A stretch of DNA of 64,000 bases from an uncultured Thermoplasmata archaeon. Its GTDB lineage: Archaea > Thermoplasmatota > Thermoplasmata > Lutacidiplasmatales > UBA184. Below the pieces are notes generated by a model. It saw only the letters and a list, made by a program, of their open reading frames with translations. It was not told the origin of the DNA and did not search any database. Made by a program: the position numbers and the translations under genes. Shown piece by piece: positions 22,522-33,004 of this stretch. The DNA is taken from the NCBI GenBank assembly GCA_963809035.1, contig CAWEHV010000002.1, forward strand, positions 1,312,113 to 1,376,112, given 5' to 3'. Numbering within the stretch: position 1 is the first letter of the stretch; each line of letters opens with the position of its first letter.

Positions 22522-22663
22522 TACCGTTTACCACGATTGTAGCCCTATTTCCCCCTTCCGAGGGACTCCACGGGCTCGGGGAGGTATAACCGGGCCCGTC
22601 CTCTGTGAAATCCAAGGAGGGAGGGTCTCGGATCGTGAATTGACGGTGTGTGTAATTGCACAT

Positions 22664-22775
22664 GCACCTACACAGTTGCTTGCTTCCGGTAAGGGGACCC
22701 TTCGGAGAGCCGGAGCTCAGCCGCCGTAGGGTTGACCCTTCTCAAAGCCGGAGATTGTCAAAGGACCCCCTGAAT
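22664..22775 (+). repeat. Intergenic repeat element copy A (contains both modules 1 and 2)
   Basis: 'cacctacacagttgcttgcttccggtaaggggaccctt...ccgccgtagggttgacccttctcaaagccggagattgtcaaaggacc'; module 1 recurs at 26917-26975 and module 2 at 30505-30595. Confidence 0.6.
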
Positions 22776-22953: not shown

Positions 22954-24708
22954 CTAACCCGTGCCATCGGACATCACGGCCGCGTCGTTCGCAAACGAGA
23001 ACGCGACAAAGATTTCCCCCTTCGCACTGTCATACGCCACTCCAACAGGGGCGGAAACCAAAGGGGGGGTGGCGCCTGCCCAGACATCCCCCACCATCCT
23101 GTTTGTGGATGTCGACATCACACCAACGACCTCTGAGATCCAGCAAGTGATGAAGAGCTCCCCAGTCCCGCCATCGTACACTAGCCCGGAGGGGTAGTTG
23201 AACCAGCCAATGGTCCCGTTCACGGCCCCGTACACATTGATCCGCATCCCCGTGTTGGTCGTGTCATTGATCACGAAGACCCCTCTCCACGTTCCTAGCA
23301 CTCCATCGACCGCGACAAAGACCTCTCCGTTCGTGGGGTCATACGCGAGCATCTGGGGCTGGTAGCCTACTGGGACGGACGCCACCACCGAGTAGTTGGT
23401 ATCGTTGATCACGTTCACATCGGCCAAGGTGTAGCTTCCCACAAAGGCTGTGGCGAAGATTTCGCCTTTACCGCTGTCGTATGCAAGGCTGAGGATATTG
23501 CCTCCCATCGCAATCGTGCGGACCACTTTGTTGGTGGAAGTGGAGATCACACTTATGCCACTGCCACCGCCAACAAAGACCATCCGCTTCGCGCTGTCGT
23601 ACGCAATGCCTTGAGGATTGGCGGTCACGTTGATGTTCGCCACGACCGAGTTTGTCGCATCATCGATCACGCTTACGTTGTTCGACCCGGTATTCGTGAC
23701 AAAGATCTCGCCCTTCGCGGGGTCGTACGCCATTTGGTCAGTGTTGTTGCCTGCCGCGATGATCGCCACTACTGTGTTCGACGTGTCGTTGATCACGCTC
23801 ACGTTGTTCGCGCCCTCGTCGGAGACAAAGACCTCCCCCTTCCCGCTGTCATAGGTTGCAGCATACGGATTGCTGCCCACCGGGACGGTCGCAATGGTTT
23901 GGATTACTGATTTGTCTATGAACCCCGCCTTCGAGTTTGAGAAGGCGAAAAGGCCGAGCAGTTCGGTACGTTGAGGCGCATTGGATGCGTGATAGATTGT
24001 AGTCTCCGCGACGTGGTAGGTACCGGCCGCGAGCTGCGCCACACCAAACGCCATGCCGGGATAACTTCCAGCGGTTGCACTCGATTCGAGGGTCAGCCCC
24101 GGGATTCCTGCAAGGACGATGGTGCTGCGAGTACCGCTACTAACTCCGACGACCACGACGAACGCGGGCTCTGGCAAAACGAGCTTTTCCTTGAGCGTGC
24201 TGTTTTACCTGATAGGTAACGAGTGCGATGTGGTCTTCTCACCGTAGAACTGGAATCCGCTCACGCCCACGGCTCCAATTGAGAAGTGGTAGTCGCTTGT
24301 CGTGTAGTTGTCCAAATCAGCCTGGGTAGCGGCAATCCCTGCTGCGATGTGCCCCTGCGAATCGACGGCGGAGACCAGATTCCCGACCCAGAATCCGGTG
24401 GTTTGGCGGACACCACTGTTGGCCATCGCGAAGATGTTCAAGGTAGCAGGCGCCGTCGGGTTCGTGAAATTAAGCGAGTCCGTCTTGTTGAGGATCGAGA
24501 CACCTGTCACATAAGGGGTGGTCGCAGCCGCGCCGGTAGGTCCAGCGGCCAGGGGTGTATCGGCCATTAGGGCCGAGACAGACGGTACCAGCATGATGGC
24601 GCCGATTGCCACGACTATGGTCACGGCAATCATGTGAGCGACCCCAATACGCGCTTGGCCATTCCACCCGGACGACACCTTCTGCATGGTTCGGTCTCCC
24701 GTTCCCAA
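22954..24708 (-). pseudogene. YVTN beta-propeller surface protein with N-terminal class-III-like signal/TM, interrupted by one in-frame TAA (24205-24207)
   Basis: ORFs 24205-24708 and 22954-24177 are in the same frame, separated by a single stop. The upstream part has 'RIGVAHMIAVTIVVAIGAIMLV'. The downstream part has >=8 YVTN repeats ('VxxTIxVGxxPxGxAYDxxxGEVFVxN'). Confidence 0.55.
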
Positions 24709-25721: not shown

Positions 25722-25958
25722 GTGGCGCCCCTACTGAGAGTCCGGCTCCGCACGACCGGGGAGAACCTCCTCGTCGCGAGCGGACCCGGGTCCGGACAGA
25801 GCGTCTTCCATGTCCATATTCACGTCATCCCGCGACAGACGGACGACGACCTCCGCTGGAATGACTGGTGGCAAACCAAAGTAAGGCCAATCGGTAGGCC
25901 CGAGCTCAGTGACTTAGCCGCTTCTATTCGGGGGTCGGCCGACCCCCCTCCCCGGTAG
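25722..25958 (+). pseudogene. HIT-family (histidine triad) hydrolase C-terminal remnant
   Basis: 'GQSVFHVHIHVIPR' is the HxHxHxx triad motif; the expected N-terminal half is not in frame. Confidence 0.4.
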
Positions 25959-26130
25959 AAATCCACCGCTTTCTGAACATCATGCAAAGGGTTCCCTTAG
26001 CCGAGTGGGGGGAATGTGTGTAACAGTACGCGCACCCACATTCCGGGCTGCCAACATTTGGGCTCCGTGAGGTCAGTCGCGCGCGACCGGCCGGCTGTAG
26101 GCACCCGTCCAAGACCCGGACGTGCACCAC

Positions 26131-26466
26131 CTATGCCAGTTCCAGGACCAGCCCCTTATCCTTGTTCGGTGAAACCATCACTTCCTGGCCGGCTTTGATC
26201 TTAAGGCGCCGAGCGAGGGGTGCCGGAATGCGAACCACCAACGAGTTGCCGGAGCGAACGACCTTGACCTTCGTCCCCAATCCCCAGAGACCGAGTTCCT
26301 TCGCTCGTTCCTCGATTGCCTTCATAGCTTCTGATCCGAGGAATGATTCGCCGCATTCGTCGCACACCTCGCCATCGTATGTGCCGAGGTCAACTCCAAA
26401 CATTTCCTCATGGACCTCCCCGGCCAGGAGCACGCCCTTGCCACAAATGGGGCACCGTTCAGCCAT
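26131..26466 (-). CDS. Zn-ribbon + AbrB/SpoVT-type DNA-binding protein (putative antitoxin)
   Basis: 'CPICGK...CDECGE' zinc ribbon followed by an AbrB swapped-hairpin region 'KVKVVRSGNSLVVRIPAPLARRLKIKAGQEVMVSP'. ATG at 26464-26466 is preceded by GGTGGTGA; the upstream gene stops at 26469. Confidence 0.6.
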   Translation of the reverse strand: MAERCPICGKGVLLAGEVHEEMFGVDLGTYDGEVCDECGESFLGSEAMKAIEERAKELGLWGLGTKVKVVRSGNSLVVRIPAPLARRLKIKAGQEVMVSPNKDKGLVLELA

Positions 26467-26468
26467 TC

Positions 26469-26675
26469 TCACCACCTCGGTTTGACCGTGATCACGTAGC
26501 ACCTAGATCTGCGCAGAACATAGACGACACTGAAGTATCGGTAAGTCGAGACAATCCGGGCGTCTTGTCGAGACTTGACCCCAATTCGAATGGCTTCCTC
26601 GACCTCGGTGGACGAGATTCCACGAAGGACCATCCGCTCTCGGGCATGGTTGCTGTAGACGACCGTGTAGGCCAT
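26469..26675 (-). CDS. DUF4258-like small protein (RelE/ParE-fold putative toxin)
   Basis: 'YTVVYSNHARERMVLRGISSTEVEEAI...RYFSVVY....YVITVKPR' matches the DUF4258 pattern (HAxERMxERGIS..EV). Confidence 0.55.
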   Translation of the reverse strand: MAYTVVYSNHARERMVLRGISSTEVEEAIRIGVKSRQDARIVSTYRYFSVVYVLRRSRCYVITVKPRW

Positions 26676-26916
26676 CTGTTACGTGTAATACATGTCATAC
26701 TATAAAGACAATCGAGGATAGGTGCAGGCCGGGTAGGACCAGGGGCCATACTCTCCGTCCTTGCACGACATTCGGGCACTAGGGCGCCCGGCCAGTTGGG
26801 GTCACGCGAGCAAAGTCCGTCCGCCTCCGGAGTTGGGGTGAACATGGATCAACCGTTGTGCGTTCAATCGACCTGGCACATCCAAGGGCAAGTGATGGCG
26901 CGGGTGCAACAGCACG

Positions 26917-26975
26917 TACACCTACACAGTTGCCCGCTTCCGGTAAGGGGTCCCTTGGCAACGCGCCGGAAGTAT
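26917..26975 (+). repeat. Intergenic repeat element copy B (module 1), ~190 nt upstream of surface protein gene 27159
   Basis: 'cacctacacagttgcccgcttccggtaaggggtcccttggcaacgcgccgg' vs copy A. Confidence 0.55.
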
Positions 26976-27158: not shown

Positions 27159-30100
27159 GTGATGTCGCCTATCGATTCGATGGCGCGCCGCAACTCCAGA
27201 GTTCGTAGATTTTGGATCGTGGTCCCCCTTGTCGCCATCTTGAGCCTTTCCGGCCTTGTTGGAGCGATTCCCTCATCCTCCGCTGGTGGTTCTGGGAACG
27301 GATTTCATGGGGCAGTCGGGCACGCCACAGGCGAGGGCCGATTAGGGGCGGTCACGCCGAATCTGGGTCGCGTGACCATGGGTTCGAGCTGGCGAGCCAA
27401 CGCGGCTCGAAGTCCCTCGGCGTCATTCGCGCCATTTGTCCGGTCAACGTTGATTCTCCTGAACAGCACTCTCGCCGCCGGGAACGATTTGGCCGGGAAT
27501 GGAGAGGGTCCGTATGGGGCCGTACTGATACCAGGGACTGACTTACTAGTGATTCCGGACGAGGGAAGCGGCTACCTTTCGGTTTTGAACGTCTCGACGA
27601 ACCAGTTAATCACCGTCGGTCCGGTGGGAACGGCTCCTTCAGCCATTGCATTCGACCCGACGCGCGACCTCCTAATGGTCACTGACGAGGGAGCAGGCCA
27701 AGTCAGCATCGTGTCAGCCACGAATTACTCGGTCTTGGACCGGGTGGATGTCGGAAGCAGCCCCGATGCCATCGCCTACGACCCACTCAACGGCACCACC
27801 TACGTCGTGAACGGTAACTCAAACAACGTGACGGTCATCAACGACAGCTCCATGGCCGTGATCGCAACGATTTCGGTTGGGAATTACCCTGACGGCGTCG
27901 CAGTGGACAACCACACGGACCAGATTTTCGTCACCGATTACTACGATGATAACGTTTCGGTTATCAACGCCTCATCCAACACTGTCGTCAAGACCGTCGG
28001 GGTGGGTTCGGGTCCCAAGGGACTCGTATTTGACTATCTGTCGAACAAGGTCTACGTCGCCAACAGCGCGGGGGAAGATCTCAGTATCATCAAGGACAGC
28101 ACAGACTCCGTCACGCACACTCAAGAATACGGGGCCTACACCAGCCCCCAAACAATCGCGCTCGACCCGGCCAACGATACCCTCTACGTCACGGAAGGGT
28201 TCGCGGCCCTTTCGCCGGTGAACAATGTCACCTTGGTGAACGTCTCCACGGGTGCGGCCATACTGAATATATCGGTCGGACTCTACCCGTACGGGATCGC
28301 CTACGATCCCGCGGATCAGTCTGTATTCGTCGTCAACTCCGCTTCTGAGAACGTGAGCCGCGTCTCGACCATCTCGAACAACGTAACGGCCACCATTTCG
28401 GTCGGAACCCATCCCCACGCGATCTTCTATGACCCGAGTGCCGGTGAGATTTGGGTCTCGGACACAGACTCAAACAACCTCACCGCCATCAGTCTGACGA
28501 GTGGAAAACTCGTGGGGTACGTACCCGCGAACACGTTCCCGTCCGGCCTCGCCTTCGACCCCGCCCTGGGACAGCTACTAGTGACCGACGAGTCCTCGAA
28601 CGAGGTCACCCTGATAAACATCACGACCCACTCGGTCACCGACACGGTGCCGGTCTCGTCGCAGCCGATCGCGGCTAGCTTCGATTCGCTCAATGGCGAC
28701 TACTACATCTCCACATCCCTGGATGGCGGTGCCCTGGCCGTGCTTTCCTCGGCAAGTGACTCTGTCACCGGCAACGTCACGTTGTTGGGAGTTTTGACCC
28801 GTTCCTCGGTATTTGTCCCATCTCTGAATGAAACGTATGTCTCGGACCTAGGGTCCGCTACGATTTCGATTGTCTCCGACGTGACGAACACGCGCGTGAA
28901 GAACGTGGTCGTCGGCACTTCGCCGCTCGGGGTCGCCCTCGACCCGGCCCGAGGAGAGGTGTTCGCTGCCGATTCGGGTTCAGACCAGGTTTCCGTGATC
29001 AACACCTCGACGCAGACCGTCGTGGCGACCGTGCCGGTCGGTTCACAACCTTCGAGCGTCGGGTATGACCCCGCGGCTGGCGAAGTGTTCGTCACGAATT
29101 CGGGTTCGAACAATGTCAGCGTGATCAATGACACGACCAACACAGTCATCGCGAATCTCGCCGTTGGCGCACTCCCGATTGGAGTTACCTACGACCCGAC
29201 TAACCAATTGATGCTCGTCACGAACGAGAATCAGGGTACGGTCTCCATGATCCAAACAGCGAATACGACCTTCGCTCTCACGTTCCAGGAGTCAGGGTTG
29301 CCCGCGAGCACCCTCTGGAATGTTTCCGTGGGTGGAACGTCCCACCAATCGACGAGCTCGTCCGTAGTCTTCTCTGAACCGAACGGGACAGTCGCGTATT
29401 CGATCGGACACGTGGCAGGATACCACCCCGCGCCCTCGTCCGGGTCGTTGGTCGTCAGCGGCCAGCCTTCCATCGTCAACGTGACGTTCGCCACGAACGC
29501 CGTCCAGTTGTACAACGTGACGTTCAGTGCCCAAGGGTTGCCTTCGGGCGCGACCTTCGGGGTCACGCTTAACGGTTCTGCGATGTCCTCGTTGGGCGGT
29601 CCGCTGGTCTTCGAAGAACCGAACGGGAGCTTCCCCTTCAGTGTAAGTTCGGTCACGGGCTATCGCGCGACGCCGACGAGTGGGGCGATCGTCGTCCACG
29701 GGACTCCTGCCGACCAAACGATTACATTCACCGAGAATGCTACTCCTACCTACACGGTCGACTTCGAGGAATCTGGTTTGGCCCCGGGAACCAGGTGGTC
29801 GGTCACCTTCAACGGTTCTCTCAACGCCTCCACCACCTCGGAGATCGGCTTCAAAGTCTCGAGTGGAACCTACACGTACAACGTCACACCCATCCCCACA
29901 TACTCTGCGAGTCCCTCCCACGGCTCCGTGCCAGTCACTGGCCCGACCGCGGTCGATATCGGCTACACGATCCCAGCATATGTCGCGACGTTCACGGAGT
30001 CCGGGCTTCCCAGTTCTACCAACTGGTCAGTGACCCTTGGTGGCGAGCCATACTGGACGACCTCCGCATCGATCTACCTGGACTTGGCCAACGGCAGTTA

Positions 30101-30371
30101 CCCATGGACGGTCTCGACCGTGAAAGGATTCACGGCCACTCCGGTAAGCGGGAAGCTCTCGGTTAGCGGAGCGAATGTCACCACGCCCATCAGCTTCGCT
30201 CAGAACACCACCACCAACGTGCCGCCCTCCAACAACACCTCGAACGGAGGAGTATTGGGCCTCTCCGACCTCGATTGGGTTGTCATCGGGGTATTCGGAG
30301 CATTGGCGGTAGTGGTACTCGCGGTCGTTCTGACGAGGTACCGGCGACCCGGCGCTCCTCCCGAGACCTGA
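27159..30371 (+). CDS. Surface protein: signal peptide, ~14 YVTN beta-propeller repeats, 7 'FxESGLPxxTxW' repeat modules, C-terminal TM anchor
   Basis: 'RRFWIVVPLVAILSLSGLVGA' signal; repeated 'VxVGxxPxxIAYDPxxGxxYVxN'; repeats 'FALTFQESGLPASTLWNVSV', 'YNVTFSAQGLPSGATFGVTL', etc.; C-terminus 'LSDLDWVVIGVFGALAVVVLAVVLTRYRRPG'. Confidence 0.8.
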   Translation: MMSPIDSMARRNSRVRRFWIVVPLVAILSLSGLVGAIPSSSAGGSGNGFHGAVGHATGEGRLGAVTPNLGRVTMGSSWRANAARSPSASFAPFVRSTLILLNSTLAAGNDLAGNGEGPYGAVLIPGTDLLVIPDEGSGYLSVLNVSTNQLITVGPVGTAPSAIAFDPTRDLLMVTDEGAGQVSIVSATNYSVLDRVDVGSSPDAIAYDPLNGTTYVVNGNSNNVTVINDSSMAVIATISVGNYPDGVAVDNHTDQIFVTDYYDDNVSVINASSNTVVKTVGVGSGPKGLVFDYLSNKVYVANSAGEDLSIIKDSTDSVTHTQEYGAYTSPQTIALDPANDTLYVTEGFAALSPVNNVTLVNVSTGAAILNISVGLYPYGIAYDPADQSVFVVNSASENVSRVSTISNNVTATISVGTHPHAIFYDPSAGEIWVSDTDSNNLTAISLTSGKLVGYVPANTFPSGLAFDPALGQLLVTDESSNEVTLINITTHSVTDTVPVSSQPIAASFDSLNGDYYISTSLDGGALAVLSSASDSVTGNVTLLGVLTRSSVFVPSLNETYVSDLGSATISIVSDVTNTRVKNVVVGTSPLGVALDPARGEVFAADSGSDQVSVINTSTQTVVATVPVGSQPSSVGYDPAAGEVFVTNSGSNNVSVINDTTNTVIANLAVGALPIGVTYDPTNQLMLVTNENQGTVSMIQTANTTFALTFQESGLPASTLWNVSVGGTSHQSTSSSVVFSEPNGTVAYSIGHVAGYHPAPSSGSLVVSGQPSIVNVTFATNAVQLYNVTFSAQGLPSGATFGVTLNGSAMSSLGGPLVFEEPNGSFPFSVSSVTGYRATPTSGAIVVHGTPADQTITFTENATPTYTVDFEESGLAPGTRWSVTFNGSLNASTTSEIGFKVSSGTYTYNVTPIPTYSASPSHGSVPVTGPTAVDIGYTIPAYVATFTESGLPSSTNWSVTLGGEPYWTTSASIYLDLANGSYPWTVSTVKGFTATPVSGKLSVSGANVTTPISFAQNTTTNVPPSNNTSNGGVLGLSDLDWVVIGVFGALAVVVLAVVLTRYRRPGAPPET

Positions 30372-30504: not shown

Positions 30505-30595
30505 TCCGCATAGGGTCCCTTCTGAAAGTCGGAGTTCCGCCGCCGTAGGGTTGACCCTTCGCAAGACCGGAGATTGCCAAAGGAGCCCATAGAGA
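30505..30595 (+). repeat. Intergenic repeat element copy C (module 2) between surface protein genes
   Basis: 'ccgccgtagggttgacccttcgcaagaccggagattgccaaaggagcc', ~90 % identical to copy A module 2. Confidence 0.55.
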
Positions 30596-31108
30596 ACCCT
30601 CTGATTAGAAATGGGTCAGAGCCAACGAAGAAGGGCTGGGTCCTTCCCCAAAGAGCCCGTTGACAGCGAGGCTGCACTGATCCCGCCTGGCTCTCAGCAT
30701 AGATGAACGGAGCACACACTCGGTGATCGACCGGGAGGAGCGAGGGGAGCCACGCAGAGGGCGACGCCCCGCCTCGCCAGGAAAGCAAGCCCATCCAGTT
30801 GACCTGGGGCAGGCCTACTCGACGCCATGCGCCTGCACGTCGTTCTTCAAGACCACCCCAGGTAGAGAGCGGAGTCGAGGCAGAACCAGATAGCACCGGC
30901 CCGGCGGACTTGTCAGTGGCGAGTGTTCTCCTCGGCGTTTGCCATTGGAGGCAGTCGCCGGGCCAGCAGGGGCGCCAACCGCCCCTCTCCCCACCCCCTC
31001 ACCCTGTGCAAACCGGCGGGGTACAATGTCAAGTCCGCGTGACTAAAGGTTCAAGAGCCCAGTCCCGGACCTATCCGCTGGTCCTTCCGGGATTGGGAGC
31101 AAGCCATC

Positions 31109-32680
31109 ATGAGCATAACCAGAGTTTGGGGTGGACGATCCGCGGTGCGGGCCGTGGTGTCGATCGTGGTCCTCTGTTCCATGCTCGCGAGCGGTGGCGC
31201 GCTGGCCGGCCACCTCCACGCCGGTTCGTTGTACAATTCCTCCGACCTCTACGCCGGTTCGTCGTACAATTCCTCCAGCGTGGGAGCTGGAACGATGCCG
31301 GCAGCCTTGGTCGCGTCGACGATTCCCGTGGGATCCGACCCCACCGACGTCGTGTACGACAGTGGGAGAGGGGAGGTGTTCGTCATGAACGCGGTTTCGA
31401 ACACCGTGAGCGTGATCAACGACACGACGGACCTGGTCGTCGCGTCGATCACGGTGGGGGGCATTCCCCAGGCCGCGGTGTATGATAGCGGGAAAGGGGA
31501 GGTCTTCATCGAGAATGGGAGCTCGAATGGGGGCTACCCCTACCTCAGCGTGATCAGCGACGCGACGGACACGGTAACGACTACCGTCTACCTCGAGGGT
31601 AGTGGTGCCGACGCCATGGCGTACGACCGTGCGGCCGGCGAGATCGTCTTGTGCGTCCCGGAGGTCGGCGTAGTCGGCATGAACGACACGACGTATGCCT
31701 TCACGTCGCTCGGAGGCGGCGACTCTGCCGTGGGAGTAGCGGTGGACCCCGCGCTTTCGGAGATTTTCGTAACCAACTACGGAGCCGCCGGCACCGTCAG
31801 CGTAATCGGGGCCAGCAACGGGACCCCTGTGGCGACCATACCCGTGGGATCCGATCCTGTCGGGGTGGCGTACGACAGCGCGAAAGCCGAGGTCTTCGTC
31901 GCGAACTCCGGCACATACACCCTGAGCGTGATCTCCACCGCGACGAACAAGGTCGTCGCGAACGTGACCGTAGGTGCCGCCTACCAGACGCCAACTCCAA
32001 CGGGTGTGGCCTATGACGGCGCGATCGGGGAGCTCTTCGTTACAAACAATGAGGCGAACGATGTGGCCATAGTCTCGGACACGACGGACACCGTGACCGC
32101 GACCCTGGGGGTAGGAAGCAGCCCCTCCGGTGTCGCCTACGACAGCGCGAAAGGAGAGGTCTTCGTCGCGAACTCCGACTCCAACGACGTGAGCGTGTTC
32201 ACGCCTGGGGCAATTATCTACACCGTGTCTTTCGGGACCACCCCGGCGAACTGCAGCATCACCTTCGCCGGAAAGTCGTACGCGAGCGGTACGAACAATT
32301 CGAGCGTCCTCGAGGGGACGTATTCGATCGTCGCGAACGCGTGTAGCGGGGAGACGTTCGATTTCTGGGGGGACGGCTCTGGAAACGTCAAGTCCCCCAC
32401 CTCGTCCTCCACGACGGTTGTGATCAACGCAAGTGATCAGGGGGTGAGTGCGGTGTACACGTCAAGCGGATCGCCCTCCGGAACCCCCCCGGGGTCAGGC
32501 TCGCCCTCCTCGTCCTCGGGACTCTCCACGTTCGACTACGTGATCATCGCCGTCCTGGTGGTGGCCGTGCTCGTGATTGTCGCGGGAGGAGCCCGCAGGC
32601 GCCGAAGAAGGAAAGCATCCGTCGCTCCCCCGACGCCCTCCCGGGAGGCTGGCCCGGGCGTCCCCCCCCCTCCACCGTGA
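31109..32680 (+). CDS. Surface protein: signal peptide, YVTN beta-propeller repeats, Ser-rich linker, 'GLSTFDY' motif, TM helix, poly-Arg tail
   Basis: 'VVSIVVLCSMLASGGALA' signal; 'VxxTIPVGSDPxxVVYDSGRGEVFVMN' repeats; C-terminus 'SPSSSSGLSTFDYVIIAVLVVAVLVIVAGGARRRRRRK'. Confidence 0.8.
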   Translation: MSITRVWGGRSAVRAVVSIVVLCSMLASGGALAGHLHAGSLYNSSDLYAGSSYNSSSVGAGTMPAALVASTIPVGSDPTDVVYDSGRGEVFVMNAVSNTVSVINDTTDLVVASITVGGIPQAAVYDSGKGEVFIENGSSNGGYPYLSVISDATDTVTTTVYLEGSGADAMAYDRAAGEIVLCVPEVGVVGMNDTTYAFTSLGGGDSAVGVAVDPALSEIFVTNYGAAGTVSVIGASNGTPVATIPVGSDPVGVAYDSAKAEVFVANSGTYTLSVISTATNKVVANVTVGAAYQTPTPTGVAYDGAIGELFVTNNEANDVAIVSDTTDTVTATLGVGSSPSGVAYDSAKGEVFVANSDSNDVSVFTPGAIIYTVSFGTTPANCSITFAGKSYASGTNNSSVLEGTYSIVANACSGETFDFWGDGSGNVKSPTSSSTTVVINASDQGVSAVYTSSGSPSGTPPGSGSPSSSSGLSTFDYVIIAVLVVAVLVIVAGGARRRRRRKASVAPPTPSREAGPGVPPPPP

Positions 32681-33004
32681 TCCTGGGTCATCGCACGCCT
32701 AGGTCTCTCCCGGCCGCTCCTCCCCACCGTCGTCGCTCGCGTGAGCGACAACGAGGTCGCGGGCCGCCGAAATCGCGACCGCTCGCCCCCGGGGGATCAC
32801 AATAAGCACCCGTTAAGGGCGGAGGGTATTCGCTCGAGTGCCGGGCCCGAAGCGACGTCCGCGACGGAGACCCCCGCTCCCCCCTCCGATTTGCACCTGC
32901 TCGGCCGAATCATTCAAGTACCTCTACGCCCGAGTGTATCGACGTGGGCTGAGAGCCCTCCCGGGGGCTGCGAGGAGTTGAGCCGCTTCAAACTGACTGC
33001 TAGA

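Follow-up and report, generated by a model that had tools for sequence, protein, structure and literature searches.

Within a 64,000-nucleotide stretch of the genome of an uncultured Thermoplasmata archaeon (contig CAWEHV010000002.1; the whole stretch is referred to below as the window), we describe a pair of small genes, located between positions 26131 and 26675 on the minus strand, which is a well-supported, real type II toxin-antitoxin (TA) cassette, found conserved across archaea and seemingly mobile among them. The product of the first gene is a 68-aa protein of the DUF4258 family, that of the second an antitoxin in which an MqsA-type zinc domain is followed by an AbrB domain: the cassette is a domain-swapped MqsA analogue paired with an uncharacterised RelE-fold toxin family, and not a new kind of system. 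Our overall reading, to which we assign a probability of about three in four, is that of a mobile, archaea-wide type II TA cassette organised like mqsRA, in which the zinc domain would neutralise the toxin and the AbrB domain would repress the transcription of its own operon. The pair has the properties by which type II systems are recognised: two tightly spaced, co-oriented genes, a toxin fold and family, a DNA-binding domain in the antitoxin, and persistence of the unit in varying genomic contexts. The features are listed here with their coordinates in the window.

26675..26469, minus strand: toxin gene, 68 aa plus TGA stop, DUF4258, predicted RelE/ParE (BECR) fold
26466..26131, minus strand: antitoxin gene, 111 aa plus stop, two domains
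26287..26466, minus strand: YgiT/MqsA-type C4 zinc domain and helix, antitoxin residues 1-60 (TIGR03831, Foldseek)
26134..26271, minus strand: AbrB/MazE/SpoVT swapped-hairpin domain, antitoxin residues 66-111, C-terminal (PF04014)
26469..26476, minus strand: Shine-Dalgarno (SD)-like sequence GGTGGTGA, made by the final toxin codons AGG TGG TGA (R-W-stop)
26701..26706, minus strand: putative TATA box TTTATA, 26-31 nt upstream of the toxin ATG, read from the sequence
26678..26700, minus strand: operator-like boxes GTATGAC (26700-26694), GTATTAC (26691-26685) and GTAAC (26682-26678), with a 9-bp period
26028..26922, no strand assigned: shared 895-bp cassette, promoter region and both genes (blastn and alignment to locus L001)

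Conservation of the gene pair

The two open reading frames (ORFs) are present on the minus strand essentially as given in the initial annotation, including the placement of stop and start codons and the SD-like sequence: the toxin stop TGA, at 26471-26469, is separated by a gap of 2 nt from the antitoxin ATG, at 26466-26464. The junction reads ...AGGTGGTGA GA ATG, and the 68-aa translation of the toxin is MAYTVVYSNHARERMVLRGISSTEVEEAIRIGVKSRQDARIVSTYRYFSVVYVLRRSRCYVITVKPRW. The length of the partner, previously given as 112 aa, had to be corrected to 111 aa, which is also that of the majority of its homologues. A GTG at 26502, evaluated as a possible antitoxin start, was ruled out, given the prevailing length of 111 aa and a family alignment starting at the ATG.

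For the antitoxin, 122 homologous clusters at 90% identity, mostly of 111 aa, were collected, along with 476 representatives of 50%-identity clusters at E<=1e-3, 149 of them at E<=1e-10. Scanning of one genome per species identified a relative in 116 species, from which 80 loci were retrieved. In 76 of these 80 loci, spanning about a dozen archaeal lineages, a match to the toxin hidden Markov model (HMM) immediately precedes the antitoxin and is co-oriented with it. The lineages, as judged from record titles, comprise Thermoplasmata, Methanomassiliicoccales, Methanocellales, Hydrothermarchaeota, Halobacteriales, Methanosarcinales (including Methanoperedens), Hadarchaeota, Woesearchaeota/Nanoarchaeota, Micrarchaeota, Nitrososphaerota and Bathyarchaeia. 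The recurrence of the pair in different species, with the same order and the same tight junction, goes far beyond chance. Both the profile match and the conserved pairing, on which the initial annotation had made its proposal depend, were thus found.

The antitoxin start could be placed in 59 of the 76 paired loci: it lies 1-7 nt from the toxin stop in 52 of them, and in another 4 the two genes overlap by 4-7 nt. The Arg codon preceding the terminal Trp of the toxin is AGG in 39 out of 54 cases, a usage which keeps the SD-like sequence in place. Translation of the antitoxin would be coupled to that of the toxin through this sequence, contained within the end codons of the toxin itself.

Four loci are unpaired. 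Two of them, L039 and L055, are cut by contig ends; the others are L035, in which a toxin remnant is found, and L056. In L035 (2976-3336) an intact orphan antitoxin is preceded by all that survives of the toxin, its eight terminal codons (...MITVQPRW), which abut the end of a 480-aa ORF (1534-2976). For TA loci, an antitoxin left alone beside the remains of its toxin is a well-known final stage. Tandem arrays, made of two or three diverged pairs on one strand, are found in L048, L054 and L065, all contributed by metagenome-assembled genomes (MAGs) of the DPANN groups Nanoarchaeota and Woesearchaeota. Finally, in L084 an intact 68-aa toxin gene (1219-1425) was missed by the gene finder of the source, which called the adjoining antitoxin; small toxins of the DUF4258 family are probably under-annotated.

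The toxin

The 68-aa protein matches the Pfam family PF14076 (DUF4258) with 33.1 bits (cut-off 25; E 7e-8), over profile positions 1-69 of 71, and DUF4258 is its sole Pfam match. The set of homologues obtained from a word-indexed search consists of 25 clusters, all of which carry the PF14076 annotation already. Comparison of the toxin profile with PDB sequences returned nothing at E<=10, and the fold was therefore taken from a predicted model. The AlphaFold2 (AF2) model, built on the 25 homologues, features a predicted local distance difference test score (pLDDT) of 94.1 and a b-a-a-b-b-b-b topology. When it was compared to PDB structures by Foldseek, matches with probability 1.0 were obtained to RelE2 (3g5o), HP0894, RelE, YoeB, YafQ, ParE and the RelE-like domain of Cami1; template modelling scores normalised on the query, TM(query), range from 0.61 to 0.71 for RelE, YoeB, YafQ and ParE. 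MqsR is absent among the top 50 fold matches. By its predicted fold, the toxin belongs to the RelE/ParE (BECR) superfamily, in agreement with the initial annotation, which had proposed a DUF4258 protein with this fold; DUF4258 is indeed listed among 13 BECR-fold families of TA toxins (Gerdes 2025, PMC11980606).

Residues invariant in all 25 homologues are H10, R14, M15, R18, G19, I20, S21, E24, E26 and A28 in the first part of the protein, followed by G32, K34, Y47, F48, V61, I62, V64, R67 and W68. Among them, H10, R14, R18, K34, Y47, R67 and W68 are candidate catalytic residues.

The antitoxin

The antitoxin is composed of two domains. Its N-terminus (residues 5-45) matches the NCBIfam model TIGR03831, a YgiT-type zinc finger, with 25.1 bits (cut-off 20.2), and 18 of 29 family members match PF15731 (MqsA_antitoxin) at E<=0.01. 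Three of the cysteines, C8, C35 and C38, are shared by all 29 antitoxin homologues, and the fourth, C5, by at least 90% of them. The zinc-domain part of the antitoxin model, corresponding to the N-terminal 60 residues, has a pLDDT of 82-90, and its top five Foldseek matches in the PDB are MqsA, the isolated MqsA N-domain and the complex of MqsA-N with MqsR (top entries 3gn5, 3ga8 and 3hi2; probability 1.0), with TM(target) not exceeding 0.70. The C-terminus (residues 69-109) matches PF04014, MazE_antitoxin (SpoVT/AbrB), with 32.3 bits (cut-off 24.7), as do 29 out of 29 family members; profile matches of this part in the PDB are MazE (2mrn and 1ub4) and the PemI-like 1mvf. The AbrB reading head, SGNSLVVRIP, is near-invariant, and the SGNS..R.P motif is invariant in the homologues.

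Models of entire known antitoxins are, in contrast, not reached. The full-length MqsA models are missed (TIGR03830, 24.2 bits vs 61.8; PF15731, 16.2 vs 30), the match being limited to residues 4-58, and so are the MazE/PemI models (NF047400, 18.9 bits vs 50; TIGR02609, 27.2 vs 55.9). The protein is an analogue of MqsA in which AbrB takes the place of the helix-turn-helix (HTH). The initial annotation had described the partner as a C4 zinc ribbon joined to AbrB: both domains are there, but the first is not a generic ribbon, being of the YgiT/MqsA type. It had also indicated DUF2283 as the usual partner of DUF4258, for which no support was found: neither of the two papers found to name DUF2283 is among the 13 in which DUF4258 appears, and no match of the antitoxin to DUF2283 (PF10049) was detected at E<=10 in the Pfam scan.

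Some representatives share the N-terminal zinc domain and differ in what follows. P0258 carries a UPF0175-like C-terminal domain, and P0193 and P0208 end with short helical tails. Other short matches in the search of representatives were discarded as new architectures, many of them being frameshifted or shortened copies, and P0193, P0208 and P0258 are the only ones which look like true alternative C-termini. Their sequences support an arrangement in which a fixed, putatively toxin-binding zinc part is joined to an exchangeable C-terminal domain.

Promoter and candidate operator

On the minus strand, the sequence preceding the toxin ATG reads CTTTATA-GTATGAC-AT-GTATTAC-AC-GTAACAG-ATG. Most related loci have a TTTATA, TTTAAA or CTTAAG-like box in the equivalent position. 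A TATA box 26-31 nt before the ATG, as in archaeal promoters, predicts that the toxin-antitoxin transcript would be leaderless, or nearly so.

The operator-like boxes follow the TATA box and precede the start codon of the toxin. This arrangement is repeated in related loci, where 7-bp boxes with the consensus GTAWTAC come in twos or threes. Of the 76 upstream regions, 56 contain the hexamer TAATAC/GTATTA, where 1.2 would be expected, and the density of GTAWTAC is 10.4 per kb upstream of the toxin vs 0.046 per kb elsewhere in the loci, a difference of about 230-fold. At least two boxes, allowing up to 1 mismatch, are present in 44 of the 76 loci, successive boxes being spaced by exactly 9 bp in 43 cases out of 52. 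In the whole window GTAWTAC (GTAATAC or GTATTAC) occurs once, at 26685, within the promoter of the cassette itself. A motif conserved to this extent fits the near-invariance of the AbrB reading head and is the obvious candidate: the GTAWTAC boxes are probably the operator through which autorepression would be exerted.

A 19-nt inverted repeat is also present, in which the TATA-box region (26700-26718) is complementary at 17 of 19 positions to the antitoxin codons for AMKAIEE (26309-26327), the maximum in shuffled sequences being 14 of 19. It is confined to the lineage of the window and L001, and absent in 45 other loci; it was consequently rejected as a part of the mechanism.

Mobility and genomic context

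The pair tends to be found in unrelated surroundings: 51 of 81 loci have no flanking homologue in common with any other locus. The window is 100% identical to GCA_049585255.1 (L082) over 7.3 kb, and 95.7% identical to, and syntenic with, the JGI contig L084. The comparison with L001, from the Thermoplasmata MAG MFD09222.bin.2.161, is of a different kind. Here 895 bp, containing about 250 bp of upstream sequence, the two genes and about 100 bp of downstream sequence, are 96.6% identical; similarity is lost abruptly at both ends, and the immediate flanks are unalignable. The sole other match between the window and L001 is a family 2 glycosyltransferase (GT2) gene, 69% identical, found 1.5-3.5 kb away and at a different distance in the two sequences. 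Such a sharp loss of similarity around a nearly identical segment is best explained by, and suggests, a recent transfer or recombination of the cassette.

The genes next to the cassette also differ. It is flanked in L001 by a 221-aa ORF on one side and a transposase-like ORF on the other, in the window by a gene for an NHL/YNCE-repeat surface protein and by a truncated HIT gene. The transposase-like ORF of L001 (2976-4748, minus strand) adjoins the downstream end of the cassette, at the exact point where the window ceases to be similar; it looks IS110-like, as judged by eye from a YVGLDVH... motif in its translation. The HIT sequence in the window is a 78-aa ORF (25722-25958, plus strand) just downstream of the cassette, in which just the last third of the HIT domain is matched (profile positions 64-97 of 98, with an HVHIHVIP motif): it is a truncated or frameshifted HIT-family gene. 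Terminal repeats were searched for at the ends of the 895-bp cassette, as a sign of a transposable unit, and discarded, the matches being weak and short.

An intergenic element of about 120 nt (22650-22769) is repeated in two pieces in the same region: a copy of its left 53 nt (85%) lies at 26904-26956 and one of its right 76 nt (86%) at 30513-30588, the two pieces bracketing the gene for the 1070-aa NHL/YNCE-repeat surface protein (27159-30371). It is within the first of these copies, 26904-26956, that the cassette shared with L001 has its upstream boundary (26922), and this could mark a site of recombination or insertion. Paralogous NHL/YNCE beta-propeller proteins, with internal repeats in common, are encoded at 22954-24177 (minus strand), 27159-30371 (plus strand) and about 31100-32700 (plus strand), and adjoin GT2 and GT4 glycosyltransferase genes, a neighbourhood which suggests a variable cell-surface region. 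Nothing was detected by Rfam and tRNA scans of the window.

Discussion

The proposed mechanism may be outlined as follows. The 68-aa DUF4258 protein would be a toxin, likely an RNase blocking translation, by analogy with other proteins of RelE-type fold. The zinc domain of the antitoxin would bind and block it, as happens in the MqsR/MqsA pair. The C-terminal AbrB domain would dimerise, giving rise to a toxin-antitoxin2-toxin assembly, and the AbrB dimer, sitting on two or three GTAWTAC boxes, would shut off transcription at the start site, resulting in autorepression. In this scheme toxicity, RNase activity, the identity of the neutralising domain, DNA binding and autorepression are what we infer from the data reported above. 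The data themselves comprise the assignments of domains and folds, the pairing and junction of the genes, the operator-like motif with its conservation, the varying context and the recently shared cassette.

Some points weigh against this interpretation. It is by analogy and elimination that we assign the neutralising interface. In the monomer model of the antitoxin, the AbrB region has a low pLDDT (40-68), which is however expected, since a swapped-hairpin domain folds only as a dimer. As to mobility, the background divergence between the genome of the window and L001, against which the identity of the cassette is set, was gauged from one nearby gene. The toxin family itself is reported as "undescribed in the literature", with target unknown (PMC11980606). 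Finally, the cassette has no match in PADLOC, weak matches to unannotated families only in PHROGs, and no relatives among the IMG/VR viral contigs, scanned with both alignments.

These last results bear on a different view of the same parts, namely that they make up a dedicated abortive-infection or anti-virus module, in which the toxin would be released on infection rather than as part of an addiction or stress response. A role in phage defence is on record for many type II TA systems, MqsRA and HigBA-type modules among them (PMC11980606, PMC13409141), and the mobility of the cassette, with its location in variable regions, would be in keeping with such a role. We nevertheless regard it as unlikely: the defence models of PADLOC are not matched, and in the window the cassette is flanked by glycosyltransferases, NHL/YNCE-repeat beta-propeller proteins and a HIT fragment, rather than by the neighbours of a defence island. 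Given the lack of relatives in PADLOC and IMG/VR, neither a defence role nor a viral vector is supported.

A bolder version of the story, which we hold to be quite improbable, assigns to the Cys4 zinc domain the function of a redox- or metal-sensitive switch, releasing a DUF4258 toxin endowed with a new RNA target, within a leaderless, archaea-wide cassette whose operator and AbrB head would have remained near-unchanged from DPANN to Thermoplasmata and Nitrososphaerota. If true, release by a zinc switch would follow a logic unlike the protease-driven release proposed for canonical antitoxins.

A possible redox sensitivity of the Cys4 site may also be taken to favour a third hypothesis, in which some other part of the antitoxin neutralises the toxin, for instance the AbrB domain by binding it, and the zinc domain acts as a sensor or as an RNA or DNA binder. 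Indeed, in antitoxins of the MazE, VapB and PrlF types the toxin is contacted by the AbrB-containing protein. The part of these proteins which binds the toxin is, however, an extension located C-terminally to AbrB, whereas here the protein ends with AbrB (residues 69-109 of 111) and has no C-terminal tail. Three other observations lead us to indicate the zinc domain as the likely neutraliser, and make this hypothesis very doubtful: the N-domain of MqsA, to which the zinc domain is homologous, is responsible for toxin binding, and the C-domain of MqsA for DNA binding (PMC2791442); fusions of DUF4258 in bacteria consist of the toxin domain and a YgiT finger, a DNA-binding domain being absent (PMC11980606 supplement); and relatives of the antitoxin keep the zinc domain while swapping the C-terminal one, for example with UPF0175.

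Least probable of all is that the 68-aa protein is a non-toxic co-regulator, tuning DNA binding by the AbrB protein within a two-component transcription factor for other GTAWTAC genes: MqsA does regulate other promoters too (PMC2791442), the conservation of the operator motif from phylum to phylum is striking and DUF4258 activity has never been demonstrated, but the single GTAATAC/GTATTAC of the 64-kb window lies at the cassette promoter, the predicted fold is of the RelE-toxin type with invariant polar and aromatic residues, and the orphan antitoxin of L035, the variable context and the tandem duplications are typical of TA behaviour.

Returning to the TA cassette organised like mqsRA, the closest known counterpart is the E. 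coli MqsR/MqsA (YgiU/YgiT) system. The two share a toxin gene in first position, a toxin of RelE-type fold and a structured antitoxin in which a Cys4 zinc domain of the YgiT type makes up the N-terminus, and a domain for DNA binding and dimerisation the C-terminus (PMC2791442). A repeated operator in the module's own promoter would be a further trait in common, if the boxes described here act as one. In contrast, the C-terminus of MqsA is an Xre-type HTH, replaced here by AbrB/MazE (PF04014), the toxin is DUF4258 and not MqsR (PF15723), the full-length MqsA models are missed, and the hosts are archaea, with a promoter of the archaeal TATA type. The cassette would thus work like mqsRA, but it is not a member of the mqsRA family. 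The order of the genes, presented in the initial annotation as the reverse of the classical one, is as stated; it is not unusual, the toxin gene normally coming first in mqsRA, higBA and brnTA (table in PMC11980606).

A second term of comparison is provided by the 17 fusions of DUF4258 to MqsA (YgiT) reported in bacteria (Gerdes 2025, PMC11980606), in which a DUF4258 domain is likewise followed by a YgiT-type zinc finger; these are, however, single polypeptides, and contain no DNA-binding domain. Alignment of the archaeal pair with one of them, Q5P696, by hhalign yielded short matches in the expected regions, with probabilities of 7-20%: similarity is low, and the relation rests on the shared family models. 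Yet another pairing is known from Synechocystis, where a DUF4258 gene is coupled to HicB (PMC4963859).

The antitoxins with an AbrB fold, MazE/PemI, VapB-AbrB and PrlF, resemble the one described here in their swapped-hairpin domain, from which dimerisation and binding to an operator in their own promoter are expected. In those proteins AbrB is N-terminal and is followed by a disordered tail which wraps the toxin, whereas in the archaeal protein it is C-terminal and preceded by a folded zinc domain; the partner toxins are MazF, PIN or YhaV in the former, DUF4258 in the latter. The closest structural relatives of the toxin belong instead to the RelBE, YefM-YoeB and DinJ-YafQ systems, whose toxins are ribosome-dependent mRNA interferases. 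These differ from the present cassette in that the antitoxin gene comes first and encodes a protein of the ribbon-helix-helix (RHH) or Phd type; in addition, the toxin described here has no detectable sequence similarity to solved structures.

The initial annotation had regarded the pair as an undescribed antitoxin architecture. This holds insofar as our literature search found no description of an antitoxin made of a zinc finger and AbrB; it needs to be qualified in that automatic names are already present in NCBI and JGI, and the link between DUF4258 and YgiT has been published. The MqsA-type zinc module emerges as a portable one, found in combination with HTH in MqsA, with AbrB here and with a UPF0175-like domain in P0258, and fused to the toxin in bacteria. 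The mix-and-match view of antitoxin evolution is thereby extended, and nothing is overturned; modularity being well established, specialists will find the architecture only mildly surprising.

DUF4258 is one of the last families of TA toxins in the RelE/ParE superfamily lacking an experimental description (PMC11980606), and the TA biology of archaea is thinly studied. With a toxin of just 68 aa, an antitoxin whose parts are cleanly separable and a sharply defined candidate operator, this cassette is a clean experimental entry point to both.

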